The notes under the pieces are model-generated. The model saw only the letters and a program-made list of their open reading frames with translations, searched no databases and had not been told where the DNA came from. Source: a virus (Duplodnaviria; Caudoviricetes). From it: a stretch of DNA of 34,542 bases. Positions 2,648-33,766 of the stretch are shown piece after piece. A program made the translations under genes and the position numbers. The stretch spans positions 1 to 34,542 of the IMG/VR virus record IMGVR_UViG_3300030330_001107, one strand, 5' to 3'. Each line of letters begins with the position of its first letter. Positions within the stretch are counted from its first letter, which is position 1.

Positions 2648-2847
2648 TAAAATAACCTCGTGCCTTTGTTTACTAGAGTGGCTTTGCATAAACATTCATA
2701 TTTACGCACCTGATCCCCAAGTTGCACTACCTGACCATGCAATCTTTTTTTAAAATAATTACAATTATTTACATTAGAAAATTTTATATCTCCACTATAT
2801 TGTAAAGGATCTGTCATAAAACACATTAATATAAATGCAGCTTTCAT
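2647..2847 (-). CDS. Small Cys-rich, possibly exported hypothetical protein
   Basis: Hydrophobic N-terminus, 4 Cys, overlaps both neighbours. Confidence 0.6.
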   Translation of the reverse strand: MKAAFILMCFMTDPLQYSGDIKFSNVNNCNYFKKRLHGQVVQLGDQVRKYECLCKATLVNKGTRLF

Positions 2848-3323
2848 CTACTTTCCTTATATAACCAAGCAAGCATAAAAATAAATCCAACAACTGTAAG
2901 AAATAATACTATCCAGCCTATAACTTCCCATATCTTGCGGATCATTTCTTGTCTTTCATAAATCTCTTTTTTTCGCTGTAGCCTAATCTCCTTTTCCATT
3001 TCTAAAATTTGGTTCCATGAATTGGCTCCATAGTGAAAATTCAAAAATGACTTGAGTTCCTGACGTTGTGCTTCTAACTTTTTCTTTGCGGTAAATGCTT
3101 CAATAGCACTTGCTTCTATCTCTTTGCCTTTAAATAATTTACGAAGTGGTGAAGCATTCTTCGCAGATTTTTCTGCATTATCAACATCTGAAACCGCTGA
3201 CATCCAACGGCTCAAATCTTTGCCCATTGATTCTATTTCTCGACCAGCCATAAAACCAGCACGAATTGCACCAAAAGCTTTGGAAGCTGCTGTAATGGCA
3301 AGCCCAATTGATGCTGGATCCAT
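2844..3323 (-). CDS. Hypothetical coiled-coil protein with C-terminal TM helix
   Basis: ORF track. TM segment VIGWIVLFLTVVGFIFMLAWL. Confidence 0.75.
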   Translation of the reverse strand: MDPASIGLAITAASKAFGAIRAGFMAGREIESMGKDLSRWMSAVSDVDNAEKSAKNASPLRKLFKGKEIEASAIEAFTAKKKLEAQRQELKSFLNFHYGANSWNQILEMEKEIRLQRKKEIYERQEMIRKIWEVIGWIVLFLTVVGFIFMLAWLYKESR

Positions 3324-3353
3324 TTAATTTTTTTCCTATTTTATAACTATTGA

Positions 3354-3893
3354 CTAGACTTTTATTTCTTGTGCCATAATAAAACTAATACCTCTTTCAA
3401 AAGCAGAGTTATCTGTATCAGTTGCTGTTTTATTTAAATGCCATACAGCATTAGTACTTATACCTGATTGAACTGCTATTTTGTAAGTAATTTGAGAAGT
3501 AGAATTAGGTTCATCGTGATGAGCATAAAAAACAGTTTCAGGAGTACTTGCATAGTCTGTATGATAAAAAGACATGGAAGGAGCCATGATACCTACATTT
3601 CTGTTACCAGCAACTGGTGCTTTTAAATCAGTTGAACCACGTCTAAACATAAAATTTACATTGTGTGCACCATTGGCACTTACCTCACCAAAAACTTGTC
3701 CAGTTAAAAATATAATACTATTTGAAAATTTAGGAGTTATATTTACAGACAAACCAGTCATATCTACAACTTGATAACTTGTCATGGTAATAGTGTCTGT
3801 TGTACTAACAACTGTCTTTTGTGTCTGTATAACACTTCCACTAGGTAAAGAACTTAAACCACTTCCACCAAAATTTAATTTTGTTAATGCCAT
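3354..3893 (-). CDS. Tail fibre/spike module (beta-sandwich head)
   Basis: LPSGSVIQT, LSVNITPKFSNS and ITYK...FIMAQEI pattern typical of marine phage fibre tips. Confidence 0.7.
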   Translation of the reverse strand: MALTKLNFGGSGLSSLPSGSVIQTQKTVVSTTDTITMTSYQVVDMTGLSVNITPKFSNSIIFLTGQVFGEVSANGAHNVNFMFRRGSTDLKAPVAGNRNVGIMAPSMSFYHTDYASTPETVFYAHHDEPNSTSQITYKIAVQSGISTNAVWHLNKTATDTDNSAFERGISFIMAQEIKV

Positions 3894-3896
3894 ATT

Positions 3897-4403
3897 CTAT
3901 CCTACTAAATGTCCACTAAATGAGCTTGTTCCATTAACTGTCCACGCAGTATCTACACTTGAAGATGCAGTAACTTGTATTGTATCATTGGCAGATAAGC
4001 TAAAAGTTTCTGATGGAGTATATGTTTGATATAAAACAGAAGCAGTTCCATAAATTGTATATGTTGCACCAGCATTTTGTGCATTTTTTCTCATTCTTAC
4101 AGTAACAAAACCACTTCCTATACTATCAACCCTTATATTTGCTGTTACATGATAAATTCCAGTTACTGGAACTGTTATTGTACCACTACTTAAAGTACAA
4201 CCACCTTGTAAAAAAAAATCATTGCCAGTTGTTTCATCAAATCCTATGACATTCTGTGTAGTAGCTGTTCTTGATTCTGATGAAGCAAGACTAATTCTCC
4301 AAGCTGGTATAACGGATCGATTTACAACACCATTACTGTTAATACTCAAAGCTGAAGTACCACTACTGTTCTGAATATTGTTTACTTTAATTATACTTGT
4401 CAT
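3897..4403 (-). CDS. Tail fibre module, C1q-like head
   Basis: ITVPVTGIYHV ... SFSGHLVG C1q-like signature. Confidence 0.75.
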   Translation of the reverse strand: MTSIIKVNNIQNSSGTSALSINSNGVVNRSVIPAWRISLASSESRTATTQNVIGFDETTGNDFFLQGGCTLSSGTITVPVTGIYHVTANIRVDSIGSGFVTVRMRKNAQNAGATYTIYGTASVLYQTYTPSETFSLSANDTIQVTASSSVDTAWTVNGTSSFSGHLVG

Positions 4404-4406
4404 AGT

Positions 4407-4958
4407 TTATCCTACTTGTTGAAATGTACATTGTGTTCCATTATCACCAGTATAAAGGCTTGTACTGCCTTGAACATAAACATGAAATGCAACTCTTTGT
4501 GTAGATACATCTGTTATTTCAATAAGTGACTGGCAAAAAGAAGTTGCCCAACCACCATCTGTCCATATTCCAGTTAAAGATCTTGTTAGTTTACTATAAT
4601 TATTACCACTATCTGAGGAATATTTTATCTGTCCTCCAGTATAAGTTCTGTTGCCACCACTAGCTTGACATTGAAATTGAGCCTGAATTAAAAATTTACC
4701 AGTATGAGGAAATGTAAATATTCCACTACTGTGTGTCATTGATGCTCCTAGTGTTGTATGTGGTGCAGATAAAGTTGTCCAATTAGTTATTAACTCTTGT
4801 CCTGAAACTGTTACATGGTCAGCTATCTTAAACGAAGCAATAACCATTTTTGATGGAGTCATTGTACCATTGCTATTTACTGTCATAGCAGTATTAGTAC
4901 CAGTACTATCTTTTATATTAGCGACTTCTAAGTTTGTTGCATTTATAATTCCACTCAT
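4407..4958 (-). CDS. Tail fibre module, C1q-like head
   Basis: SSGIFTFPHTGKFLI signature. Confidence 0.75.
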   Translation of the reverse strand: MSGIINATNLEVANIKDSTGTNTAMTVNSNGTMTPSKMVIASFKIADHVTVSGQELITNWTTLSAPHTTLGASMTHSSGIFTFPHTGKFLIQAQFQCQASGGNRTYTGGQIKYSSDSGNNYSKLTRSLTGIWTDGGWATSFCQSLIEITDVSTQRVAFHVYVQGSTSLYTGDNGTQCTFQQVG

Positions 4959-5476
4959 TATGAATCCACCTTATAACCATAAATTCTTGATCTGAATGTG
5001 CCAGTATTTATTCTGCCACCACCTCCACCAGAATGATCTGCACATGAAACATTAAATTCGATTGTATCACCAACAGCTAGTACAATAAGTTTTTCAAGAA
5101 TTAAACTTCCAACTCTTGTATATCCTTGATTTGAATTATGTGCATATTGTTCTTCAGCTGTAATTGATCCATTTTTATACATAGTAATTGCATAAGATTC
5201 ACCATCTCCACCAATACCAGCAAAATCAATTTCTACTTGAGCTTTTATTATATAAGTTCCACCTTGATCACTTGGAACTGTAAATGTTTGTCCGTTCCAT
5301 GCAGAATCTGTATCTATTTCATTTAAAGTAAATCCAGTAAGAGTTGTGTTTGCTCCTCTGCTTAATGTAATTAAAGCAGATGGCTCTCCATAAAAATGTA
5401 CCATCTTTTTATTACTTATAGTAACTTTACCATTACTAGTCTTTGGCTCTATTGTATCTACAAATATTTTAGACAA
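4958..5476 (-). CDS. Tail fibre module, C1q-like head
   Basis: FTVPSDQGGTYII, LAVGDTIEF and GYKV motifs. Confidence 0.75.
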   Translation of the reverse strand: MSKIFVDTIEPKTSNGKVTISNKKMVHFYGEPSALITLSRGANTTLTGFTLNEIDTDSAWNGQTFTVPSDQGGTYIIKAQVEIDFAGIGGDGESYAITMYKNGSITAEEQYAHNSNQGYTRVGSLILEKLIVLAVGDTIEFNVSCADHSGGGGGRINTGTFRSRIYGYKVDS

Positions 5477-5933
5477 TTGTTAACACTCCATTTACTGTTA
5501 AGGTTTTACCATTATCAATAGTAATATCCCCAGCAACCATTGCTCTTTCAGATGTACCTATTGTTATGTTATCTGATATTGTTGCATCATTTATTCTTAG
5601 AGGATCACGAAACAATGTAGTCGATAGATGTGTACCTTGTACTGATCCAGTTGATGGTACACCACTAGACAAAGCACTACCCATCACAAGTATGTAATCG
5701 ATAACATCACTTGCTGATAATGTTTCTGTAAAAATAATCTGTGATCCTGATATATTAAAAGCATCTTGTGGTGCTTGTGTTACACCATTGACAGACACAA
5801 TACATTGCTCAGTTGTTCCAGGTGCGAAAGCTGCACCATTTCTTTGTAAGTTAAATGTGTTAGTTGCACTTGTAGTTATGGCATCTAATTTAATAAACTC
5901 ACCAGTAATATTTTCTCTACCTACATAGGGCAT
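5469..5933 (-). CDS. Tail fibre connector/branch protein
   Basis: MPYVG start, VSVNGVTQAP domain, C-terminal TLTVNGVLTIV. Confidence 0.7.
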   Translation of the reverse strand: MPYVGRENITGEFIKLDAITTSATNTFNLQRNGAAFAPGTTEQCIVSVNGVTQAPQDAFNISGSQIIFTETLSASDVIDYILVMGSALSSGVPSTGSVQGTHLSTTLFRDPLRINDATISDNITIGTSERAMVAGDITIDNGKTLTVNGVLTIV

Positions 5934-5936
5934 AAT

Positions 5937-6227
5937 TTATTCCTTTGGTTTCTCTGGAAACTTAAAATCTTTATCATTCATGCTTTTAAATTTCTTAGTT
6001 ATATCTCTTAGTTCTTGTCTATATGTTTTCCATTTAGTTGGCATGGTTACATCTGAGTTTCCCATATAGTCTGTTTCAGACAATAATGAATTTCTTTGAC
6101 TTCTTAGTTCAGCCAACTCTCTATCAGCTTTTCCATCATTCCATGCTTTTTCTTCAGCATCTCTTGCTTTCTCTTCTTTCGCTGTGAATTTTATTCTTTG
6201 ACCATCTCGTAATTTATATCTTGCCAT
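5937..6227 (-). CDS. Tail fibre assembly chaperone-like protein
   Basis: LRSQRNSLLSETDY...WKTYRQELRDIT...FPEKP motif. Confidence 0.75.
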   Translation of the reverse strand: MARYKLRDGQRIKFTAKEEKARDAEEKAWNDGKADRELAELRSQRNSLLSETDYMGNSDVTMPTKWKTYRQELRDITKKFKSMNDKDFKFPEKPKE

Positions 6228-6811
6228 TATTTTATCCCAAATAACTTATATTGAATTCTAGTTATATTTCCATTTGCAGGAAAATATTTAATAGCACTTG
6301 CTCTAGCTAAATTATTAGCTTCAACAGTATGACAACCTCCACCAACCCATGAGCCAGAACCACCATCTTTAGATTGAGTAGTTTGAAAATTCATTACGTT
6401 AGCTACATCTGTTCTTCCATAATTATTTAAATATATTTGATGACCAAAATATTTAGTAAGTCCTGAACTATGCATAAGAATCATAAAAGCATAAGCAGAG
6501 TTAGCATTTACTTGATTATTTGTCTGATCTAATAATTTACTTTGAGTTGTATAATCACTTGTATCAAAAGAACTTTGACCCTCTCTTTTATGTTGAAGAC
6601 ACCAATTTGATGAACTACTGTGATCCCCTAAAGCTGTTAATTCTAAATAATAACTATCATAGCCAGTTGGTAATGTTATTTCAGTACTTGTTACAGTTGA
6701 AGCTGAATAAACATTTGCAATTAAATCATATCCAGTACCACTAACAGTACCAGTAAAAGCAAAGGTATCTGCTAAGTTCATTGATTCTGCTTGTATCTTA
6801 CTTAATGCCAT
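6227..6811 (-). CDS. Tail fibre module
   Basis: MALSKI start, YDSYYLE and C-terminal YKLFGIK; same head type as the neighbouring fibre. Confidence 0.7.
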   Translation of the reverse strand: MALSKIQAESMNLADTFAFTGTVSGTGYDLIANVYSASTVTSTEITLPTGYDSYYLELTALGDHSSSSNWCLQHKREGQSSFDTSDYTTQSKLLDQTNNQVNANSAYAFMILMHSSGLTKYFGHQIYLNNYGRTDVANVMNFQTTQSKDGGSGSWVGGGCHTVEANNLARASAIKYFPANGNITRIQYKLFGIK

Positions 6812-6813
6812 AA

Positions 6814-7761
6814 TTAACTCTCATTTAATCCATAAAGCTGTGTAACTGCTGTATTAATATTTCCTCCATTTCCATCAGTAATAAAGAATATTGCATTTAT
6901 CATTGATGTTCTTGTTGCTGAATTTATATATCCAGCACTTCGTGTTTCATATACATATCCATCATTTCTAAATTCAAAAGCATTAAATCTTACAACTAAA
7001 ACTTTGCTTCTTTCTTCTGCTGTGTTACCAGTACCAGTTATTTCTATACTTGCATTACACCCTAAAGCAGTTGCACTATTAGAAGCATTTTTAAAAATTC
7101 TAAAACCAGTTGATGAGTTATCACTTCTAGTATCAACTGTTCCGTTATCTAACCTAATGGAAGTAGACTGTTGCCATACATGAGCAAGTGCATTACTACC
7201 ATTATCTACACTAAATCTTAAATCTAGATCTACTGCATTTGTTGCTGGTACAAAATTATGAATTAAAATCTTATATGAATTATACGAAGATGTTATTTTA
7301 TCATTAAAAAATCCTATACTTGCACCATTGCTAGAAGCATTACTTGCAATTGTATATTCTTTTCTTTGTAAAAAAGTATACATAGGTGTGTCTACTGCTC
7401 CACTTGCTATTTGTGCAGAGGTAACTGCATTATTAGCGATCTTAGCAGTTGTTATAGCATCATCAGCTATCTTTGCAGTACTAACACTACTATCTGATGG
7501 CACAGTTGTTTGTACTGCTCTTGCTAAATAAATAACATAAATATCGTCTGAGTTAGACACACTACCAGTAAGTGAAACTGTTGTGCCATTGACAGTATAA
7601 GCTTCTGTAGGCTCTTGTCGTACATTGTTTATATACAATGCAATGTCATTAGCATTAGCTACTGCATGAGTAAGTGTCAGACTTGTACCACTTGCACCAG
7701 TTAAGTCTTGCTTTAAAAGACTTGTAAATGCTGTGTCTACTGGGTTTCCTATATATGCCAT
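6814..7761 (-). CDS. Tail fibre protein with 10-aa (V/I)TxAKIA repeats (start re-called to MAYIGN)
   Basis: LYINNVRQEP domain and SVSTAKIADDAITTAKIANNAVTSAQIA repeats. The ATG at 7761 overlaps the upstream TAA. Confidence 0.75.
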   Translation of the reverse strand: MAYIGNPVDTAFTSLLKQDLTGASGTSLTLTHAVANANDIALYINNVRQEPTEAYTVNGTTVSLTGSVSNSDDIYVIYLARAVQTTVPSDSSVSTAKIADDAITTAKIANNAVTSAQIASGAVDTPMYTFLQRKEYTIASNASSNGASIGFFNDKITSSYNSYKILIHNFVPATNAVDLDLRFSVDNGSNALAHVWQQSTSIRLDNGTVDTRSDNSSTGFRIFKNASNSATALGCNASIEITGTGNTAEERSKVLVVRFNAFEFRNDGYVYETRSAGYINSATRTSMINAIFFITDGNGGNINTAVTQLYGLNES

Positions 7762-8411
7762 TAGCTTATTGCATCCACTCTTGAAACCCAAACATCCAGG
7801 CTTGTTACTGTACTCGATTGAAAAAACATTCTATCACCACTTTGGACAACTAGCTTTGCACCGCCATCTAAAACTTGTAAGGCACTATTAGCTGGTATTG
7901 GTGCATCTTTAATTAAATAATGAACATCCGTAACTGTGATCTGACCTCCATGATTTGCATGATTGCCACAATAATAATATAAGGTAGACGGAGTAGAAGA
8001 GGACACAACTACAGTTAAAGTATTTGCACTTGAATCTCTTGTAACACCAGTTGTGTATTCAGACCCACCACCATGAGTTCCATCAGAAGTTGTAGACAAT
8101 GAAAATGGATGTGCTGACGGATAACTAAAAACGTATGTAAAACCTTTTAACAATGTGATATGAGGTCTGACTACACCATCAAGTAAATATTGACTTGATA
8201 CTACTGTAACTGTAATTGCAAAAGGATCACCAGTATTACCAGTAAATGCACTTGATGTCATAAAACAAGAAGCTGTTATGGCATTGTCTGTTTTGTTTGC
8301 CATATGAATACCAATGATTGTATTGTCGCTGCCAAAGTCAGATCCATTAGGTATGTCCTGGGCAATTGTGCCAATATTGGTTATAAAGTTTCTTTCAAAA
8401 TCTTGTGCCAT
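7761..8411 (-). CDS. Tail-associated protein with inserted cupredoxin-like domain
   Basis: The conserved frame (MAQDF...IKDAPIP...DGGAKLVVQSGD) is interrupted by AHPFSLSTT...LYYYCGNHANHGG. Confidence 0.7.
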   Translation of the reverse strand: MAQDFERNFITNIGTIAQDIPNGSDFGSDNTIIGIHMANKTDNAITASCFMTSSAFTGNTGDPFAITVTVVSSQYLLDGVVRPHITLLKGFTYVFSYPSAHPFSLSTTSDGTHGGGSEYTTGVTRDSSANTLTVVVSSSTPSTLYYYCGNHANHGGQITVTDVHYLIKDAPIPANSALQVLDGGAKLVVQSGDRMFFQSSTVTSLDVWVSRVDAIS

Positions 8412-9781: not shown

Positions 9782-12700
9782 TTAATTGTAGTTTTTTATA
9801 TATTGATTTTGTTGAAAACTTTTACTTAGTTCTTCGTTACCTGGCAAAGATAACATCAAAGGTATTGCCGCTTCGTAAAACAAATCTTCTGCATTTTCTA
9901 TCATTTTTCTTCTACCGTCATCGTCACTTCTTAAATAAAAAGGATTTATCATTAATATTTTTAAATAATCTCTAAATGTGTACATACCGCTGCCACTTGA
10001 TCCCTTGGCTTTAAGTCTTAACACAACTTTATTTTTTGCAAGATTAGTTAGTTGACCTCTTCTTATGTCATCCAAAGCCACACCTTTTATTCTTGTTTTT
10101 TCCTCAGTAAGAGGTGCACCTAATCTAATAAGCTCTTTATGATAGGGTTCAATTTGTTCTTCACCATAAGACATTCTAAATGGCGTAATGCTGTTCCAAA
10201 CGGCTAACAATGGATTAACACTAAACGGAACACCACGCTCTTTTTTATAACCAAGCATATCATATTTATAAGCATATTTTTCTTCTATGCCTTTAACATA
10301 AGGTATAGTCATAACTTGCTGGTTCCATCCGTAAGCAACTGTGTCATAAAAAAATGTAGCAGCTGAATCACCATCAATATTCTTTTTAGTTCCAACTAAA
10401 GAATATGGTGTTGACTTTAATGGATTGTCTGTATTTTGACTATCTTCATAAAGTTTTTGTACGTCCTTTACAGAATAATATAAAGAAGGTATCGCTGGTG
10501 ATTTTCTAGGTATAATCTTACCTTGACCATCAACGCCCTCTTCTTCATCTGTCAATTTTCTTATATTTCTTACTGCACTACTAAAAGGTATTGGAGCTAT
10601 TCCAATCATGCTTCCTAAAGGACTATCAATTACAAGTGAAGGATCACCATAATCAAATGCCCTTATAATAGATCCTAATCCTTGCAAAAAAGGTAAATCT
10701 CTAAAATACTCAGCTGTTGCAAGTGTAGCTGCTGAAGCTAAATCTAATCGATCTTCAGGATCATAAAACATTGTTTGATTTTGAGCTGTACTAGCTGCAA
10801 TACCTAAAAATGCACTTACTGGCTCCAAACCTTGATAAGAAACATAAACAAGTCTACCATTTGGCAATCCAGTTTTTTCGTTATACATAGGCAGCGGATC
10901 TCCATCTTTATCAGTTGGAAAATCTTCTGCTCTAAAAACTAAACTGTAAGGCTGCCAACCAGGCGGTAACATTCTTTGTGCTTGTTTATCTCTTGGATAA
11001 GATCCAGTTAATTGACCATTTAATGCATATTCATGAAACATTGCTAGTGTCATTGAACCTAAAGACATCTTGCCTAAAGCTCTTTGTTGTGCCCTTGCAC
11101 CATTTTGTCCAAGTATATTTTTTCTTATTGTGCCACCAAAAACCATTGAAACTGCTCCAACTAAAGGGTGACCTTCACCTAGACGAAGTATACTATTTGT
11201 TGGTGCTTTAGCAAAAGGCATTAAGACTCTACCTGGAAAGTATTTTCGTATACCTTTAGTAAAACCACCAAGTAGTCCGTCACCCAAGTCAGTTGTCATC
11301 GTCACATATCGAGCTGCATTATCTAATTCATCAGATTTATATTTAGGATCTAGTAAAACCATCATAGCATCATCAACACTATCATCTACAGATTTACCTT
11401 TTGCCCTAGAATTTCTAGCTGTTCTTACAGCTTGTTCATAAATTTCACCACGACTTGATATAACTCGCCAAAAATCATCAGCAGCTTGTAAAGCCGTACC
11501 AGGATAACGTATTAGTTTACCAATTAAATCAATAGCTTTGCCTGGTGCCCCTGAAATATTAAGTGTTTCAGAATCAATAGCTCTATAATTAGCATTTTCA
11601 ACTTTGTTTAAAATATCAGCTGGTACACCAGTTTTAAAAGTTTTGCCCATAACAACATAAGCATCTCTTAAAGATTTAGAATAACCATATACTCTTGCAA
11701 ATAAATCTTCAAAGAAAACTCCTTCAGGGTTTACTTCTTTGCCAATTAACCTTTGACCAGTACGAACTGTTGTACCAATACTTGCTCCTATAATATCTGC
11801 CATCAAGTTAAAAGACATAAACAATGGCGTAGCCAACATATTTTTTAAATGTGTAGGTGCCCAACTCAATAAACCATTTACATATACTTCTTGCCAAATA
11901 TTACCTAATTTTTGATACCATGCACCAAATACATATTTATTTGCATTTGCCTGACCGCCTTGTTTTAAAGCATCTAAATAGCCTTTAGCCATTTGAGTTG
12001 CTAATTTAGATCCACCACTTTCATCAAGAATAACTTGTGCTTGTACAGCTGGTATATCTGTACCAGTTGGTATATTGAAAGATTGTAATGCTCTAGCTAT
12101 TTCTGTTTGAGCACCTTTAGCCTTCATTTGTATTCCAGCATGAATAGACATTTGTCTTCTAAATTTGACTAAGTCATTTGGACTACCATCCCCAGCATCA
12201 ATTTTTTTTGCAAGTTCTTCTAATTTTTTTGCAGAATTTTGTAATAAAATCCTTACAGCTGTCATTTCTTCAGCGTTAAGAAGTTGACCACTTTTTTTAT
12301 TTAAAAGTTTTTTTGTAAGACCTATTTCATCCGCAAGTAACCCTTGAGCTGTATCAAGCGTTTCTTTATTTGTTTTGATACCTCTTTTTTCCAGCTCTTG
12401 AGGATTTTTATATATTTCGCTAATAGTGTTGATAGCTCTGTTAACATCTGAACCACTTTCAAAATTATTAAAATTAAAATCTAAACCAGTATCACCTGAC
12501 AATAAGTTTTTATCTTTTATCTCTAGGTAATCAAGTGCATCACCTTCATTAGACAAGCCAGTTTTAAATCCTTGTGAAGCTTTTTTAGCTGATTGATTTA
12601 CTTCTACGTCAGCAGCTTCTTTTGCCAGTTCAACAACGTCCTCTTCAGGATCAATCGCTGTTTTAGCACTAAACCCAGCTTTTTTAAATCTTTCTGCACC

Positions 12701-12994
12701 TTCTTCCGTTAAAACTTCAGGCGTTAATTTTTCTTGTACTGATTTATACTTTTCACCTTCACCAAGTAAACCTTCAGTACTTGGTTCAGGAACTCTTGTA
12801 GTTGTGTCACCTTTTGACACAGAGCTGCCCATACTTGATTTGTCTTGTCTTTTTAGTATCTGACCTAAAGTGCCAATAATTTCTTTGCCTAATCCAGCTA
12901 CCTGGACATTATCACTTTTGTTAGGTCGTGTACTAGCAAAATTAGTTACGCCAGTTTCTGACGCATTTGCGACTTGTTCTTCAACGGTTGCCAT
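9782..12994 (-). CDS. Large internal virion/ejection protein (T7 gp16-like position)
   Basis: 1070 aa; NGLLS..TH..N, PF..PTN and G.LTG..P..GWQPYS motifs; syntenic position. Confidence 0.75.
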   Translation of the reverse strand: MATVEEQVANASETGVTNFASTRPNKSDNVQVAGLGKEIIGTLGQILKRQDKSSMGSSVSKGDTTTRVPEPSTEGLLGEGEKYKSVQEKLTPEVLTEEGAERFKKAGFSAKTAIDPEEDVVELAKEAADVEVNQSAKKASQGFKTGLSNEGDALDYLEIKDKNLLSGDTGLDFNFNNFESGSDVNRAINTISEIYKNPQELEKRGIKTNKETLDTAQGLLADEIGLTKKLLNKKSGQLLNAEEMTAVRILLQNSAKKLEELAKKIDAGDGSPNDLVKFRRQMSIHAGIQMKAKGAQTEIARALQSFNIPTGTDIPAVQAQVILDESGGSKLATQMAKGYLDALKQGGQANANKYVFGAWYQKLGNIWQEVYVNGLLSWAPTHLKNMLATPLFMSFNLMADIIGASIGTTVRTGQRLIGKEVNPEGVFFEDLFARVYGYSKSLRDAYVVMGKTFKTGVPADILNKVENANYRAIDSETLNISGAPGKAIDLIGKLIRYPGTALQAADDFWRVISSRGEIYEQAVRTARNSRAKGKSVDDSVDDAMMVLLDPKYKSDELDNAARYVTMTTDLGDGLLGGFTKGIRKYFPGRVLMPFAKAPTNSILRLGEGHPLVGAVSMVFGGTIRKNILGQNGARAQQRALGKMSLGSMTLAMFHEYALNGQLTGSYPRDKQAQRMLPPGWQPYSLVFRAEDFPTDKDGDPLPMYNEKTGLPNGRLVYVSYQGLEPVSAFLGIAASTAQNQTMFYDPEDRLDLASAATLATAEYFRDLPFLQGLGSIIRAFDYGDPSLVIDSPLGSMIGIAPIPFSSAVRNIRKLTDEEEGVDGQGKIIPRKSPAIPSLYYSVKDVQKLYEDSQNTDNPLKSTPYSLVGTKKNIDGDSAATFFYDTVAYGWNQQVMTIPYVKGIEEKYAYKYDMLGYKKERGVPFSVNPLLAVWNSITPFRMSYGEEQIEPYHKELIRLGAPLTEEKTRIKGVALDDIRRGQLTNLAKNKVVLRLKAKGSSGSGMYTFRDYLKILMINPFYLRSDDDGRRKMIENAEDLFYEAAIPLMLSLPGNEELSKSFQQNQYIKNYN

Positions 12995-13078: not shown

Positions 13079-13312
13079 TTATACTAAACCCATCTGACCA
13101 TCATTTTCAATTTCGTTATTATCTTGGAACATTTCAGGCAATGCTGCTATTTCTTCAGCTTCTAATTCAGAAGGCACATCACCATTGTAAACTAACTCTA
13201 AATAATTCTCTTTTGTTAATGGTATGTCATACTTTTTCATAAGAGCTATAAAACCATCCTCATTGTTCCCAGGCTGGTTTTTCGATACCTCCAGTTTCTC
13301 TTTCAATTCCAT
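13079..13312 (-). CDS. Small acidic protein, candidate inhibitor/immunity partner
   Basis: 77 aa with 18 D/E vs 6 K; IPLTKENYLELVYNGDVP...E..ALPE. It overlaps the upstream gene by 53 nt. Confidence 0.65.
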   Translation of the reverse strand: MELKEKLEVSKNQPGNNEDGFIALMKKYDIPLTKENYLELVYNGDVPSELEAEEIAALPEMFQDNNEIENDGQMGLV

Positions 13313-15335
13313 TTATAACCTCATCTAAAGATAATTCATTATTTCTATATTTATACCATAAACTGTCAATTGCTTCTACTTTTTTTGGTGATTGTTTCAA
13401 TGTTGATGGAAATAATCCTCTTACAGCTTCCCAGGTAATTGATTGCATCTCTCTTGGCAAAACACCTCTTTCAGCTGCTGCTCTTCTATAGGCTTCTGCA
13501 TAAATACTATATAAACCTTTGATACCATTTACTTTTGAATTTTTAGCTGCACCATTCCAATCAGGTTTTTGCTCTTTAACTGTAGGAGAGGTTCCAAAAT
13601 TATGATTTACAATTGTATGTTTGCCACCAACTGGTCTAAGAGTAGCAGCTGCAACTGCGTGTGTATCAATTGTCACGTCACCGTTTTTTGAATTTGGATC
13701 AACTATATTATTATAAAAACTTCTAACCTTGTGTGCATCACCTAAAGCTCCTGATATAATTGCTTTGTCACCATTACTTTCTAAAGCAAGAATTGCGTTT
13801 TTAATCATAACATTAGAGTTCCATGCTGCTTTTGCATTTACATCTTTATCTGTTTTTACAACATCTCCAAAGTTACCTTCAGGCGTTATTATTTTAAAAG
13901 ATCTATCATTGAAGGCTTCGTCATATATTCTCACCCATATTGCTTTTTCTTCAACTGTTTCTAATTCACTAAATTTTTTGCCATCGATAGCATCTAATAG
14001 TTTTTTGTATTGAGGTTTACCAAATTTTTCTAAACCCATTGCTCTCATTTTGGCATCGTAGACAAAATCTTTTTTATTAGTGACAATATCTAATGTTCGT
14101 TCTGCAAGCGAAACATTCATATACCAATCTTTTTGCGGTGATAAAGCTGCTAACACACCGCTTGCTGATTGTAATGAAACACCATATTTATTACTAAAAT
14201 CTTGTGCAATTTTATTTGCACCTACATACCATAACTTTGACCTATTTCGTGTAGCTGGTGGAACTTTATCAAACAAATAAAGAAGATTATTTTTTGCATG
14301 ATTAATATAAGTTTCAGCTATTTCATCAGTTGATTTGTTCGTTATTTCACTTACTTTTAAATTAGGATAATCACTTATTATTTTAATGTTATGATCAAAC
14401 TGTGCTTTATTTGTTTTGCTTTCAGCTAGTCCAACAGACAAATAATTTTTAATAGGATCTTCAGTTCTGTTAACTGCTTGTGGGTTTCTTGGTGAAATAA
14501 GTATATCTGCAATTTTGCTACCTACACCAGCTTCTGCATCACTTGTTGCAACAGATCCAGCTACTAAACCTCCACCAGTTAAAGCTTTTTTCCAAGGTAC
14601 TTTTCTACCTATTTTAAAAGCAGTTTCAAGTAAACCACCTATCGCCATGCCTTCTAAAGATGACTTGGCAAGTTTGACAGCTTCAGGATCATCTTCATAT
14701 TTTTCAAATAGACCGCCTAACATTTCTCTAAAAGCGTTTGTGTCTTCTTCACTAACGCCTTCAGGATTTGAAATAAGTTGCCCTACTAAAGTTTGATCAT
14801 CTGCGTTAAATGCAGTAGCATCAGCTATACCGCCCCACATTAATGACCTGGTAAAAGCGTTTGCATTTGTAGCTAATTTTACAAAACTTGCAGCTGGTAT
14901 TGCTGTAGTACCAAACTGTGAAATAGCTTCTGACAATTGACCAGTAATTTGATTATCATAAGGTTTAGATAAGTAATCGTTAAATTTTGTATTAAGACTA
15001 GATGGTATTAACTGATTACTAATATCTGTTATAGCCTTTATCCCACTTTGTAAAAAATCACTACCCATAACTGGATTTTGAATGTCAAAACCTAATTTAT
15101 TTAATCCAGCTGCTACAATATCAAATGGAGCACCTACGATTGTAGCAAGATTATAAGGTGTTTCTGTCATACCTTTTACAGCACCTTTTACACTTGCACG
15201 ACCAATAGTATCTAAATAACCTTCTTTTTCTTGAGGAGGATCAACTAAATTTACAGTTGGTGAGATATCAAAGTATGATGCTGTTTCAGCAAGTTCATAT
15301 TGGTTTTCTACTTCATCTAAATTATATTCGCTCAT
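13260..15335 (-). CDS. Internal virion protein fused to a HhH-GPD glycosylase-like domain (DUF7178-like)
   Basis: The N-terminal ~275 aa is ejection-protein-like, with Gly/Ala hydrophobic helices. The C-terminus has WY, LAALSPQKDW, LGDAHKVRSFYNNI, VTIDTHA and MQSITW. Confidence 0.7.
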   Translation of the reverse strand: MSEYNLDEVENQYELAETASYFDISPTVNLVDPPQEKEGYLDTIGRASVKGAVKGMTETPYNLATIVGAPFDIVAAGLNKLGFDIQNPVMGSDFLQSGIKAITDISNQLIPSSLNTKFNDYLSKPYDNQITGQLSEAISQFGTTAIPAASFVKLATNANAFTRSLMWGGIADATAFNADDQTLVGQLISNPEGVSEEDTNAFREMLGGLFEKYEDDPEAVKLAKSSLEGMAIGGLLETAFKIGRKVPWKKALTGGGLVAGSVATSDAEAGVGSKIADILISPRNPQAVNRTEDPIKNYLSVGLAESKTNKAQFDHNIKIISDYPNLKVSEITNKSTDEIAETYINHAKNNLLYLFDKVPPATRNRSKLWYVGANKIAQDFSNKYGVSLQSASGVLAALSPQKDWYMNVSLAERTLDIVTNKKDFVYDAKMRAMGLEKFGKPQYKKLLDAIDGKKFSELETVEEKAIWVRIYDEAFNDRSFKIITPEGNFGDVVKTDKDVNAKAAWNSNVMIKNAILALESNGDKAIISGALGDAHKVRSFYNNIVDPNSKNGDVTIDTHAVAAATLRPVGGKHTIVNHNFGTSPTVKEQKPDWNGAAKNSKVNGIKGLYSIYAEAYRRAAAERGVLPREMQSITWEAVRGLFPSTLKQSPKKVEAIDSLWYKYRNNELSLDEVINGIERETGGIEKPAWEQ

Positions 15336-16987
15336 TGAAGGCTTACCTCATCTACTTTAAATTTTTCGTACAATTCAAATTTTCTTTTCATACCTCTTGC
15401 AAACAAGTCTGATGATGGAAAAAGTGTTGGATTGTTTTTTATATAATCTTTTGCAGATTGAAATGGTTTTTGTGGATCGTATAATATTTTATTTGTCATC
15501 AAAGTATTTGCAGAATCAATCTCATCAATCAGTCCTTGCTTCATAAGTTTTCTAAAATCAATTTCTTTTTTAGCGTAAATATTTTTTGCTTCTTGTATTG
15601 TGTTTCTGTAGTTAAGTGGTTTTCCATCAGCAAGTTGTTTTTGTTTCCATGCAAACAATTCATCTTTTGCAGAATCAAATAAAAGCTGTAAGTTTTTACC
15701 AGCTATTCCTGATGCATCTGAATTTTCATTATAACTTAATTTTGTTCTAAAAAAGTCTACAGCTTCTTTGTAACCTTGAGCTTGTTCAGCACGAAAGTTT
15801 GCTGAATATTTTTTATAATCACCATCGCTTAATCCAGGAGCTGTTATTTTAAGCAACTCAGCCGTTATTGAATTAGTACGGTCAGCATTTTCCATAGTTT
15901 CTATGGCTGAACGATCTGATTTGTCTGAACCTTTTGTTGTAACTTTTTCGATACCAAGCAACACCTCTACACTTTTTCTTTGAGCTGTAGTTTTATAGTA
16001 ACCTCTTGACATTAACTTTTTATGATTTTCTTTAGCTATTGTTAAGTCATTTGCGTTATCAACATCAACATTTATTATTTTAGCAAATAAAGCATCATCA
16101 ATTTTTTCTTTTTCTTCTTCCGCTTCTTTTAATAAGTTTGTTCGATCTTCATCAAACTCTTCTGCTGCTTTTAAAATTTTATCTCTCAATTTTACTTTGT
16201 CTTTTACTAAACCCATTAAAGTATTCAGCATGACATTGTCACTTTTGCCATCCACAATTTCCATACCAACTGCTAGTGCACTTGGTGATTGTTTCATTTC
16301 TTTCAGGACTAATCCATCAATAGCTATTTCTGCGGACGTATCAAATTGTGTTGAATATTCTTTTTCTTTAAAAGTGCCACTAGTAAGAGCTTCAAGTAAA
16401 ATGCCAGGCTGGTTTTTATTTACTGAAAATATTTTTTTAAATGCTTCATTTTTATCACCAAAGGTTTCTGCGTTTATAATCGTTTGCACATTTTTATCAA
16501 TTTGAGATGAAACATTTGCTTTATTTATTTCGACTATACGTTTGTTGTTTTCTTTAGTGTAATCAATAAAAGCTGCACTAAAAACATTTTGACCAACTAG
16601 ACTAAATTTAGCTTTTGATTTATTTGATGTTAGATAAGGCTGCTTTGTAATTGGATTTATTTTCAATCCACTTTGATACTTTCTTAAAAGTTCTTGCATA
16701 GATTTTTTTGCTTTTCTTTCAGCAGTAACTGGATTGTCTTCTTTTAAGGCTTTAGTTTTTATTTCTTGCAATTCAGTTGTCAAAGCTTTTTCAGCAACAT
16801 CAACTTCTGTAGCTGTTTCTATCTCAAGCTTCTTCATCCCTATTTCTGTGACAACATCCGCAATATTACCAATAGTTCTTGCCACAGCTGTAGCTGCACT
16901 TGGATTAAGTGATGCTGTTAATAGCCGTCCGCCACCTCTGCCCTGGAGAGATAATCCTGATTGTCTTTTGTAGGTGGGTACTCTCAT
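15332..16987 (-). CDS. Internal virion protein (gp15-like)
   Basis: MRVPTY start, helical charged composition, synteny. Confidence 0.65.
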   Translation of the reverse strand: MRVPTYKRQSGLSLQGRGGGRLLTASLNPSAATAVARTIGNIADVVTEIGMKKLEIETATEVDVAEKALTTELQEIKTKALKEDNPVTAERKAKKSMQELLRKYQSGLKINPITKQPYLTSNKSKAKFSLVGQNVFSAAFIDYTKENNKRIVEINKANVSSQIDKNVQTIINAETFGDKNEAFKKIFSVNKNQPGILLEALTSGTFKEKEYSTQFDTSAEIAIDGLVLKEMKQSPSALAVGMEIVDGKSDNVMLNTLMGLVKDKVKLRDKILKAAEEFDEDRTNLLKEAEEEKEKIDDALFAKIINVDVDNANDLTIAKENHKKLMSRGYYKTTAQRKSVEVLLGIEKVTTKGSDKSDRSAIETMENADRTNSITAELLKITAPGLSDGDYKKYSANFRAEQAQGYKEAVDFFRTKLSYNENSDASGIAGKNLQLLFDSAKDELFAWKQKQLADGKPLNYRNTIQEAKNIYAKKEIDFRKLMKQGLIDEIDSANTLMTNKILYDPQKPFQSAKDYIKNNPTLFPSSDLFARGMKRKFELYEKFKVDEVSLQ

Positions 16988-21285: not shown

Positions 21286-22149
21286 TTACTCTTGACACGC
21301 AATTTCTATTACTTTTTCTTCTTCCATACGAGTTGCCCCCATGGTCATACAGTAATAGACTTGTGTTGCGTAAGACTTATCTGCTCTTTGGTCGATCCTA
21401 GCTTGAGGTTCTTTTCCAAGTGCAACCTTCATTCCGTCAGTTGCCCAAGCAAATATTCTTCTGTTAGAACTTCCATCAACTGGTAATCTGTTTGATACGA
21501 TGAAATTAAAGCCAACGAAGGATGTAACGGCTCCGCTTGCTAAAGCTCTCACAGTATTAAAATCAGCACTAGTGACAGTTGTTGTGTTTAATAGATCGCT
21601 GATCTGCTTTGGTGATACAACGATATATCTCTGAATTGATGGATCGACAGAATTCTCATCGAGCTTCTGCTTTGCTTCAATCAATTTAGCTACGGTCAGA
21701 CCAGCTGATCCATGTGCTATTTGATTTGAAGCTGGAAAAGAGGTTGTACTTCCACCGTCCTTACCAGTTTTTGCATCACCAAAAAAAGCTGCAATGATGA
21801 CATCGTCCATTTTTCTGCCCATAGCAGCAGCAGCTGCCCTGGCATAAGTTGATGTAGGATCAATCAATAATCTGATTTTATCCTGATCATCCACCAAAGT
21901 GGCGTATTCATAGTCAGCCATTGTGACCATACGTCTTTGATGTGGTGTTTCAATCAACGGTGTATCCGCATTTCTTGTTGTTCTTTCAACAGCTGCGGTT
22001 GAACCTACTTGATCGAAAAACGCTTTCTCACCGTTAACAGTTTCAACATCTACGGTGTTTCGTAGAAGTGATCCCATTTGCTGTGAGAGAAGCTGCACAT
22101 TCGCTGAAAATTGATTTACGAATGCGGTAGTTATCTGATTCGCAGACAT
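21286..22149 (-). CDS. Major capsid protein (start re-called to MSANQ)
   Basis: FVNQFSANVQLLSQQMGS, AMGRKMDDVII and GATRMEEEKV motifs; GGAG RBS. Confidence 0.9.
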   Translation of the reverse strand: MSANQITTAFVNQFSANVQLLSQQMGSLLRNTVDVETVNGEKAFFDQVGSTAAVERTTRNADTPLIETPHQRRMVTMADYEYATLVDDQDKIRLLIDPTSTYARAAAAAMGRKMDDVIIAAFFGDAKTGKDGGSTTSFPASNQIAHGSAGLTVAKLIEAKQKLDENSVDPSIQRYIVVSPKQISDLLNTTTVTSADFNTVRALASGAVTSFVGFNFIVSNRLPVDGSSNRRIFAWATDGMKVALGKEPQARIDQRADKSYATQVYYCMTMGATRMEEEKVIEIACQE

Positions 22150-22187
22150 AACTTTCTCCATTAAATTAAGGTTAAAATTTCTACGAT

Positions 22188-29337: not shown

Positions 29338-29406
29338 ATTATATATATTTGACATTCACGGTCAATACGGTTAATAATTTATTTTACAGTATAACAGTAA
29401 ATGACA
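29338..29406. promoter_or_regulatory. cI/cro switch: cro promoter and two operators
   Basis: - strand TTGACC-16-TATAAT (29365..29338); + strand TTGACA at 29349; operators at 29350..29364 and 29392..29406. Confidence 0.7.
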
Positions 29407-29417
29407 TAGGGGATTAT

Positions 29418-30044
29418 ATGCTTCGTGATACAATAAAGATGATGGGTACAAATAATAATTTAAAAAAGTATATTAAATCAGCTGGTATGTCGCACGCAGA
29501 GGTTGCTGAACAAAAAGGCATTGCACCTGAAAGTCTGTCAAGACATATATCAGGTCGATCACAATTTAGTATTCAAGATGCTATGGACTATGCAGAAATT
29601 TTAAACTGTGATCCAAGTGTTCTTTTATTTGAGCCAACTAAAGTTAAGGTGTACGGCACGGTAGTTGATGCACATACAGTAACCATGAAAAATGCATCTG
29701 ATCCTGAACAATTTATAGCAAGTGGTTTTAGATTCCCACCTTTTGTTGGAGCATTTTTAGATACTCGAACTGACTATAATATTTATTTACAAGGATGTAT
29801 TAATTTTGTTGATATAAGACCAATACAGAATCAAATGGTACCGCAATCATCATTTGGGAAAAATTCAATTATAAAATTATCTAATGGTAAAGTACTACAA
29901 AGATGTATATATCCCAATCCTGATAAAACTTTTACTATTGTTTCTTACAGCGGTAAAGTTGAAACAAATCAAAATTTAGTCTTTGCTTGTCCAGTACTTA
30001 GTCGAGTTGAAAGACCTGAATTATTAGGTGTTGAAATTATTTAA
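29418..30044 (+). CDS. cI: CI-like XRE HTH repressor (start re-called to MLRDT)
   Basis: MSHAEVAEQKGIAPESLSRHISG HTH; GGGGA RBS; divergent from cro. Confidence 0.75.
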   Translation: MLRDTIKMMGTNNNLKKYIKSAGMSHAEVAEQKGIAPESLSRHISGRSQFSIQDAMDYAEILNCDPSVLLFEPTKVKVYGTVVDAHTVTMKNASDPEQFIASGFRFPPFVGAFLDTRTDYNIYLQGCINFVDIRPIQNQMVPQSSFGKNSIIKLSNGKVLQRCIYPNPDKTFTIVSYSGKVETNQNLVFACPVLSRVERPELLGVEII

Positions 30045-32419: not shown

Positions 32420-32621
32420 AACTTTATTTAGACCTAAAGAAGTTGCTATAAGATTTTTTGGAAACTTTAATGATACAAATCGAAAAAAAATCTACCGCTG
32501 GATTCATAACGGTGTAATAAAAACTATTGGAGATGGTGGAAGATTATATATTCCTAGAGCTGAAATAGAAAGAATAGAAGCTCATCTTGATGCTACTAAT
32601 GATGTAAAGGTGGGGAGTTAA
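32394..32621 (+). CDS. xis: Excisionase (MerR-like HTH)
   Basis: RPKEVA...KIYRWIHNG.I...GGRLYIPRAEIER; convergent with int. Confidence 0.7.
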   Translation: MMTVSLEHKTLFRPKEVAIRFFGNFNDTNRKKIYRWIHNGVIKTIGDGGRLYIPRAEIERIEAHLDATNDVKVGS

Positions 32622-32635
32622 ACCCCACCATACAT
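32602..32635. terminator. Hairpin at the xis/int convergence
   Basis: GGTGGGG-AGTTAAA-CCCCACC with an ATGTA/TACAT extension; both stop codons lie in the loop. Confidence 0.55.
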
Positions 32636-33766
32636 TGCTTCAGCAGCTGCTGATCTAGCCTTGTCTTGTTTAGCATCATTCTTAACATAATGACCATACT
32701 GACGATAAGTAAAATCAGGTGTACCGTGCCCCATAAGAGCTGCTACAGTAGACCAATCTTCACCTAAACTAGATAACTGTACTGAAGCATAAAAGTGTCG
32801 CATATCACCCCATAAAATCCTATCAACACCAGCTGCTTCACAAACTCTTCTAATTAACTTATCAAGCATCTTCTGCATTTTAGGTGTGCCGTTAGAACTA
32901 GCAAAAACTAAATCATAATCAGAACTAAATCTAGATTGTAATCTTAGCTGCTTGAGTTGGTTCATAGTGACCTGGTCAACTGGTATAGATCTCTTACCTC
33001 TTTTAGTTTTAGGTGCACCAATATTTAATGTTCCATGCTTTACTGCACCTTCAACATTTATAAGATTGTTTTGAAAATCTATGTTGCTCCAGTTCAATGC
33101 ACGCAGCTCACCTTGTCTTACACCAGTTGCAAGAGCTGTAATGACCATACACTTGTCAAATAAACTTTCAGAAGCTAAACCCTTACTGACAATCTTTTGA
33201 ATTGTTTCAGGCTGTATTCTTGGTGCTCTATCAGAAATAGTAGATGACATACCCAATGTAACTTTATCCATTACATTGATTGATGCCCAACCTTTACGAA
33301 CACAATAGTTAAGAAACATTTTTAAAAACTTAATTCTTTTCTCAGCTGTAGCTTTTGATTTACCTTCAGCATGAATACCTCTAAGCAATGCTTTAGAAAT
33401 TTCATCTTTGTTCTCTTGCTTCATAATACTTAAATCATGATTCTTAAATGACTTGCCATCGATCTTGATAGCCAAAGTAATTTGAAATGATCTCAAGAAA
33501 TCTTTGAAAAAAGATAATGAAACTTCTTTGTCATCCTTCCTGGTTTCTTGAAACTTAATAAATGTATCCGCCGCATCTGATACTTTTACAACATCAACTT
33601 TTTCTGCAATGGCACCAGTAAGAAATTTAGCCTTTAATAATTCAGCTTCTTTAAGAGCAGCTGATTTAGTGGAAAAGTTTCCATATTTGTTTCCTAAACC
33701 AACTCTTCTTGCATCTATTATCCAATGCTTCCTTGCACCCCAGTAATTAACCTTTAAATCTTTCAT
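32618..33766 (-). CDS. int: Tyrosine integrase
   Basis: TGVRQGEL (R), PKT (K), MRHFYAS, LMGH and YGH (Y) catalytic motifs. Confidence 0.95.
   Translation of the reverse strand: MKDLKVNYWGARKHWIIDARRVGLGNKYGNFSTKSAALKEAELLKAKFLTGAIAEKVDVVKVSDAADTFIKFQETRKDDKEVSLSFFKDFLRSFQITLAIKIDGKSFKNHDLSIMKQENKDEISKALLRGIHAEGKSKATAEKRIKFLKMFLNYCVRKGWASINVMDKVTLGMSSTISDRAPRIQPETIQKIVSKGLASESLFDKCMVITALATGVRQGELRALNWSNIDFQNNLINVEGAVKHGTLNIGAPKTKRGKRSIPVDQVTMNQLKQLRLQSRFSSDYDLVFASSNGTPKMQKMLDKLIRRVCEAAGVDRILWGDMRHFYASVQLSSLGEDWSTVAALMGHGTPDFTYRQYGHYVKNDAKQDKARSAAAEAMYGGV

Follow-up and report, generated by a model that had tools for sequence, protein, structure and literature searches.

A swappable phage cassette that pairs a predicted HhH-GPD-fold glycosylase domain with a small acidic +1-frame partner: a candidate injected effector-inhibitor system

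Jamet et al. 2017 (PMC5576092) report for MuF polymorphic toxins of temperate phages that a small open reading frame (ORF) follows 89.4% of the muf toxin genes, and they propose delivery of the toxins together with the DNA. Polyvalent phage proteins with LPD38, LPD22, InPase, ART-PolyVal and SLT domains are predicted to be packaged and injected (Iyer et al. 2017, main text, PMC5512222), and glycosylases have recently been described as bacterial anti-phage weapons (10.1101/2025.10.29.685425). Here, we analyse a locus of a marine phage, the IMG/VR virus record IMGVR_UViG_3300030330_001107, whose whole stretch of 34,542 nucleotides (nt) is called the window in the following. The locus comprises a 691-aa gene (13260..15335), in which a carrier N-terminus is joined to a C-terminal DUF7178 domain of the HhH-GPD fold, and the gene of a 77-aa acidic protein, called partner A (13079..13312); these and all further features of the locus given in this notation are encoded on the minus strand. 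On the evidence of genome alignments, domain and partner form a swappable two-gene cassette, attached to the C-terminal part of a virion protein that is likely ejected. This is likely a polymorphic injected effector-inhibitor cassette of the MuF-toxin/polyvalent-protein kind. The explanation we favour as a whole, i.e., an injected Ogg2-like glycosylase with a small acidic inhibitor in a swappable cassette, is given a probability of about 0.5.

Compared to the MuF toxins, the locus agrees in the virion-gene carrier, the variable C-terminal enzyme, the small ORF behind it and the probably temperate phage. It differs in that Pfam-type scans find no MuF domain in the 691-aa protein and in that the carrier belongs to a podovirus internal-virion block instead of lying near the portal gene. 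Furthermore, the effector has a predicted glycosylase fold, while the main text of PMC5576092 contains the word 'glycosylase' 0 times, and the partner gene either overlaps the large gene or lies nested within it, in the +1 frame. With polymorphic toxin-immunity systems, the locus shares a conserved N-terminus, an exchangeable C-terminal enzyme and a cognate small gene that is swapped along. A partner gene nested in the +1 frame inside another gene is known from the lysis spanins Rz/Rz1 of phage lambda. The nested cases found here are different, since the outer frame over the partner is an unconserved G/S/R/P-rich linker.

As for the polyvalent proteins, the domain is found in relatives among LPD38, LPD22, InPase, ART-PolyVal and SLT, embedded in virion proteins of 1,000-4,000 aa. 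The window's protein, in contrast, has two parts only, and a word count over the main text of PMC5512222 gave 0 for both 'glycosylase' and 'overlapping'. Ogg2, AGOG and OGG1 are the best fold matches and have in common that they are clusterless and carry the lysine, the aspartate, a histidine at D+2 and a Q/D-x3-W/F pocket (as described in PMC3397491). Here, the differences are an identity of 12%, a K-D spacing of 21, a ~90-aa insertion, a C-terminal extension, no Pfam match, the virion context and a dedicated partner. The likeness to Dag1 and Dag2, judged by their description (10.1101/2025.10.29.685425), consists of an HhH glycosylase used in conflict, the K, D and D-x3-W site and a guanine-type substrate. 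The Dags are, however, bacterial integron defences, while the present system is phage-borne, likely virion-delivered and equipped with a partner.

DUF7178 itself is a family of unknown function, and no full-text literature match was found for 'DUF7178'. Its short member gp22 of Microbacterium phage Cece is labelled 'glycosylase' in GenBank, such that the fold guess is not wholly new. For the virion-borne form, the partner and the cassette swap, no published account was found in the openly accessible literature covered. What this window contributes is an exchange of alleles together with their cognate partners, a linkage that holds reciprocally and an assignment of the base pocket.

The swap is visible at the DNA level. 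Similarity with B-type relatives (blastn) ends near 14524 and resumes at 13080, i.e., at the partner's stop codon, which shows that enzyme and partner were exchanged as one block (cassette A, 13080..14523, from blastn and junction alignment). The carrier N-terminus (14524..15335, aa 1-~271) ends at the junction AEAGV and is common to relatives with another C-terminus. Among its 28 homologues, 12 have cassette A and 16 have cassette B, each with its own small gene; homologous N-termini with swapped C-termini, which the initial annotation had proposed to look for, are therefore present. At the carrier C-terminus, two alleles only (A and B) were seen, which are distantly homologous to each other. 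Neither for the carrier N-terminus nor for cassette B was a match found among cultured phages. As a side observation, the residues encoded by window 14524-14600, ahead of the junction, are first basic, then hydrophobic and rich in Gly/Ala, and finally A-E-A, similar to the site of a signal peptidase or a protease. Of 152 homologues, 15 show this pattern in front of the domain, 12 of these being near-identical.

Cassette B (L262:5814-7974 and loci L286-L364) consists of a distant DUF7178-like domain, an S-adenosylmethionine (SAM)-lyase-like domain and an unrelated +1-frame partner B. The A and B enzyme domains align with an hhalign probability of 87.5, K on K and D on D; the B motifs are K in PKT.NF, D in TID.W and Q-x3-W. 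The SAM-lyase-like domain (240 aa, tandem ferredoxin-like) finds 6zm9 at Z 7.6, ranked behind porter domains of efflux pumps (Z 8.3-9.7), and has a weak PF23780 match; its G, E and Q are invariant (compared with the conserved phage SAM lyase residues described in PMC7877911). Partner B (~59 aa, +1 frame) is nested in 20 loci and was found in 71 of the 79 B loci, the other 8 being cut by the contig end. No cross-pairing was observed, i.e., no B locus has partner A and no A locus has partner B.

We also assessed how strictly partner A accompanies the domain. Its profile matches in 70/80 loci: 44 copies are wholly nested in a longer ORF, 23 overlap an ORF end, 2 lie ~3.5 kb downstream and 1 is on the opposite strand, and 65 of the 67 linked copies are in the +1 frame. 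Opposite-strand copies convergent with the enzyme gene were noted at L022, L156, L157, L160, L161, L185 and L423. The enlarged set of 196 loci (9 partial or truncated ones were dropped, and some contigs are represented twice) forms 88 clusters at 70% identity, of which 66 show a partner homologue after the domain. An independent motif scan of all IMG/VR contigs returned 89 partner matches. For 88 of these, the profile finds the domain within 2.5 kb, and the contig of the 89th begins in the domain's last helix; all 89 are thus located beside the domain, and the co-occurrence expected from the initial annotation is confirmed.

On inspection, the 22 profile-negative clusters divide into 7 with divergent +1 ORFs, 1 that is very distant and at least 14 that keep an intact active site but lack this partner. 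The divergent ORFs are acidic and sit at the partner position (L193, L194, L195, L187, L191, L177 and L201). In 7 of the 14 partnerless A clusters, a SAM-lyase-like domain, recognised by motif, directly follows DUF7178 instead (L083, L170, L176, L180, L192, L199 and L203; Pfam recognises it in L176 alone, at E 0.0003). Behind this domain, L176 and L199 have in common another nested +1 ORF. The dependence is thus one-sided: the partner is found only beside the enzyme, whereas the enzyme can occur without it. On a quick tree, the partner would have been gained or lost 8 times; no direction of these events was derived from it.

The partner of the window overlaps the 3' end of the 691-aa gene by 53 nt in the +1 frame and contains 18 D/E and 6 K/R; ORF lengths, overlap and acidic content are as initially annotated. 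A GAGGT ribosome-binding site (13318..13322) lies 5 nt before its ATG, inside the large gene. Across loci, a strong Shine-Dalgarno sequence (SD) precedes the +1 ATG in 32/61 clusters (77 candidate ATGs), compared to 3/565 control ATGs. SD and ATG recur at shifting positions, often with a +1-frame stop directly before the ATG. Strong SDs at shifting starts show that the partner is translated on its own. In 10 close pairs with a nested partner, which are not independent of each other, 125/192 base changes fall on the third codon position of the +1 frame, and the changes amount to 53 residues in the +1 frame vs 141 in the outer frame. Judged by these substitution and start-site patterns, partner A is encoded by an actual gene that has its own start and is under selection. 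One cultured Rhodobacteraceae phage, LS06-2018-MD07, carries a nested, unannotated copy. The partner protein has no family match. What is conserved is a core of ~46 aa (aa ~18-63) with Y, E and P as its best-kept residues; it is net negative in 62/66 clusters (mean -5.2), with the charge mostly in the C-terminal half.

The enzyme domain (13263..14360, aa 326-691) is a long form of DUF7178 (PF23802, E 9e-30, 104 bits vs a gathering threshold of 27) and also matches PHROG 3842; the family has 6,283 representatives at E<=0.001. Its AlphaFold2 model, built from 42 sequences, reaches a predicted local distance difference test score (pLDDT) of 92.7. A structural aligner run over 48,161 chains places only members of the HhH superfamily on ranks 1-22 (Z 9.7-4.6), with the first unrelated chain at Z 4.0. 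Best match is Ogg2 Tm1821 (Z 9.7, root-mean-square deviation 3.9, 186 aligned, 12% identity). It is followed by AGOG (Z 7.8), QNG1/DUF2419 (Z 7.6, ranks 3-4), EndoIII (Z 7.0) and then MagIII, MutY, OGG1 and AlkA. The Z values are modest and it is the unanimity of the top ranks that argues for the fold. Furthermore, a profile of two short DUF7178 proteins aligns with Ogg2 at E 7.8e-5.

The initial annotation had named the domain EndoIII-like. Its placement in the HhH-GPD glycosylase superfamily stands, but by model and motifs the domain is nearer to Ogg2/AGOG/Dag1 than to EndoIII, and clusterless: the 691-aa protein contains 0 Cys and thus no iron-sulphur (FeS) motif, as stated before, and the motif occurs in 0/89 sequences. 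Scans of the 691-aa protein gave no Pfam HhH-GPD, Ogg-HhH or PF22175 match, and PADLOC and NCBIfam gave no relevant match. The ESM Atlas provided sub-threshold leads only (0.77-0.78), to clusters with 17% Ogg-HhH or 10% AGOG. Endonuclease III membership was rejected given the missing C-terminal 4Fe-4S motif and HhH-GPD profile match. Ogg2 proper (PF22175) was rejected as well, since there is no family match and the chain runs 56 aa past W635 and ends WEQ. In Ogg2, a C-terminal lysine reads 8-oxoguanine (8-oxoG).

Within the long form, a ~90-aa insertion (13806..14078, aa ~420-510) stands out. The two short DUF7178 proteins checked (207-228 aa; L085:1270-1956 and L084:2914-3537) have neither insertion nor partner. 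Anabaena phage A-4L carries a short DUF7178 gene as third gene from its left genome end, and stand-alone versions of 443-460 aa with partner (L020, L023) are found in viral contigs of 266 kb and 608 kb, where they do not belong to an evident virion block. In one bacterial phylum, 2/401 genomes have DUF7178, both inside long ORFs.

The motifs LAALSPQ, LGDAHKV and IDTHA, already pointed out in the initial annotation, start at aa 395, 531 and 556. Within and after the first one (14133..14153, aa 395-401), S399, P400, Q401, W404 and N407 are kept in 97-100% of the partner-bearing clusters. LGDAHKV provides K536 (13728..13730), the predicted Schiff-base lysine, and IDTHA provides D557-T558-H559 (13659..13667), i.e., the predicted catalytic aspartate and phosphate-binding histidine. 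Among 254 retrieved homologues, which are the top matches by similarity, K536 and D557 (K..D-T/S/V-H) are kept in 254/254, which agrees with the earlier statement that both catalytic residues appear retained; they are also invariant across 42 aligned loci. The K-D spacing of 21 is found in 251/254. A profile alignment sets K on the EndoIII lysine and D on D at a non-significant E of 0.21, i.e., the equivalence of the catalytic residues rests on motif order and weak profile alignments and not on residue-level superposition.

The pocket Q631-x3-W635 (13431..13445), predicted to provide guanine-face reader and stacking residue, is kept in 249/254 homologues and aligns to LDLYLW in the last core helix of Ogg2 (profile alignment). 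The corresponding residues Q315/F319 of OGG1 and D194/W198 of Ogg2 are described to read N1 and to stack on the base (PMC3397491), and Dag1 is described to require D184/W188 (10.1101/2025.10.29.685425). Given the fold model and the kept residues, the domain is very probably an active HhH glycosylase, and likely a bifunctional glycosylase/apurinic-apyrimidinic lyase for a guanine-type base. The active-site columns show no difference between partner-bearing and partnerless domains.

To relate partner and enzyme, we computed mutual information for 177 paired sequences. The strongest pairs are A449-Y28 (z 6.5) and E462-L24 (z 6.4); after dereplication, z is 5.4/5.9, stable under reweighting, compared to maxima of 3.4-4.7 in re-paired controls. 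Both domain positions are on the insertion and not at the catalytic residues, which suggests a contact through the partner's first helix. Neither this nor the Y, E and P residues of the core point to DNA mimicry of the Ugi kind, whose charge profile the initial annotation had noted; the acidic C-terminal half of the partner could reach a DNA-binding surface. Position 462 is hydrophobic in 61% of the 66 partner-bearing clusters vs 2/14 partnerless ones, and several surface basic residues are enriched in the same comparison; both differences are post hoc and suggestive only. From the covariation, binding of partner and enzyme is quite probable. That binding inhibits the enzyme is a step we lean towards with less confidence, guided by gene layout, charge and the analogy to MuF toxin-immunity pairs.

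Concerning delivery, the window is a podovirus in which family scans recognise terminase, portal, capsid, tail-tube, fibre, helix-turn-helix (HTH) and integrase genes. The 691-aa gene belongs to a group of internal virion genes that is flanked by the tail-tube and the fibre genes. Downstream, a 1070-aa protein (9782..12994), common to A- and B-type relatives, matches PHROG 6651, and a flanking 158-aa gene matches PHROG 418, both families being annotated 'internal virion protein'. The upstream 551-aa gene (15332..16987), a probable internal virion protein by position only, finds no family in Pfam, PHROG and NCBIfam scans. The gp15-like and gp16-like labels given in the initial annotation are positional. 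A 'membrane-active' N-terminus was not supported: no strong transmembrane helix was found in it, the best 19-residue hydropathy window being 1.31. Gene position and the polyvalent neighbours in relatives suggest that the carrier-enzyme is probably packaged and injected.

In the favoured explanation, the late operon would co-produce carrier-enzyme and partner, and the partner, made from its own start site, would bind and silence the enzyme within the producer cell. The carrier would be packaged and then ejected, and the freed enzyme would excise guanine-type bases and nick resident or competitor DNA. If the partner has to be co-expressed, the DNA of the producer cell probably contains the substrate as well, and the enzyme would then act on resident host or competitor DNA in the next cell.

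Several observations weigh against this explanation. First, 14/88 clusters keep K and D without this partner, among them one complete 37-kb genome with no partner match, and the cultured phages CRP-738 (Roseobacter) and zth2-2 carry the domain without partner as well; such cases argue that an immunity role, if there is one, is not obligatory. In cassette B, the small gene comes after the SAM-lyase-like domain, and its product may not be the glycosylase's partner there. The covariation is based on 78-177 related sequences and cannot separate inhibition from activation. With regard to the fold, Z 9.7 is modest for a helical protein, sequence searches of PDB with the enzyme domain gave no match, and hhalign of the long domain is not significant (E 0.21 for an EndoIII profile of only 3 sequences, E 0.32 for Ogg2). 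Foldseek, which the initial annotation had suggested as a check, returned nothing at E<=0.001 on PDB (AGOG only at E 0.66), and the HhH-superfamily ranks stem from the wider structural aligner. Since neither the N-terminal ~275 aa (library scans) nor the 551-aa gene has a family match, the ejection-protein label of the 691-aa gene rests on position. Finally, an HTH repressor-like gene and an integrase gene suggest that the phage is probably temperate. A DNA toxin that acts indiscriminately would be an obstacle to lysogeny, and this sets a limit to the damage that an injected enzyme can do. The same point is raised for MuF toxins (main text of PMC5576092).

A rather unlikely alternative is a modification-dependent weapon or counter-defence, i.e., excision of 7-deazaguanine-type bases or host-added guanine adducts from competitor or marked DNA, with the partner as cofactor or specificity subunit. 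It is attractive given that Dag1 has the same K...D...D-x3-W layout and, as described, cuts 7-deazaguanine DNA (10.1101/2025.10.29.685425), although this likeness comes from the published description and not from direct sequence comparison. In every complete B locus and in the mentioned half of the partnerless A clusters, a SAM-lyase-like anti-restriction domain comes after the glycosylase, and no base-modification family was matched among the window ORFs scanned; both agree with such a role. A late-made partner without evident packaging route, however, would not reach the next cell, and the short stand-alone DUF7178 proteins do without a partner (2/2 checked).

We consider it unlikely that the injected enzyme serves repair, i.e., clears 8-oxoG that built up in virion DNA outside the cell, while the partner, as regulator or chaperone and not as antitoxin, prevents nicks during packaging. 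The top fold matches Ogg2 and AGOG are 8-oxoG glycosylases and the Q-x3-W pocket matches that of such enzymes; a repair enzyme would be harmless to lysogeny, and partnerless genomes are viable. The exchange of cassettes among close relatives and the fusions with conflict domains, however, fit an arms race better than housekeeping. Nor is there an Ogg-HhH Pfam match, and the 56 residues after W635 imply that the 8-oxoG-reading C-terminal lysine of Ogg2 is absent.

Quite improbable is an HhH-fold module that binds or modifies DNA (as a transferase) and thereby protects the incoming genome, with a structural partner and no glycosylase activity. Phage aGPT-Pplases are described to use the HhH fold for base transfer (PMC8989533), QNG1/DUF2419, which is not a DNA glycosylase, is among the top four fold matches, and sequence similarity to true glycosylases is at noise level. 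Against this, each of the residues K, D, H, Q and W is conserved where glycosylases have it, and clade 2 aGPT-Pplases are described to need a catalytic Cys and Glu (PMC8989533), while the 691-aa protein lacks any Cys. A +1 frameshift extension of the large protein, which would fit the 65/67 linked copies in the +1 frame and the database protein P0071 with its in-frame fused partner (1/254, possibly an assembly error), is very improbable and was rejected given the partner's own SD and ATG, the pre-ATG stops and the opposite-strand and distant copies.

Beyond this locus, we tentatively propose, at somewhat less than even odds, that podoviruses carry widespread, so far undescribed polymorphic injected guanine-excising glycosylases as modules of ejection and polyvalent proteins, each with a cognate inhibitor whose gene persists through the shuffling of domains since it is overprinted in the +1 frame of the linker. 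In that case, immunity to polyvalent virion enzymes would generally be encoded by genes nested in linkers, and partner A would be the first natural protein that inhibits an Ogg-type glycosylase and has its gene next to that of its target. The system would be the phage-side, virion-delivered counterpart of the bacterial anti-phage glycosylases, and both a small inhibitor that acts on the Ogg-type fold and a glycosylase with a new guanine derivative as substrate would be of use as reagents. The analysis adds a testable function for DUF7178, a very large phage family of unknown function, and offers a reason why giant virion genes, e.g., that of LS06-2018-MD07, hide small +1-frame genes missed by annotation.

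Further features of the window were noted on the side. The capsid (window 21286-22161) is 67% identical to that of Pelagibacter phage HTVC010P; the HTH repressor-like gene and the integrase gene are located at 29349-30044 and 32618-33766, respectively. After the tail fibre, window 2844-8411 holds nine consecutive ORFs of 96-325 aa, among them a C1q/TNF-like one at 3897-4403 and a tail assembly chaperone at 5937-6227.

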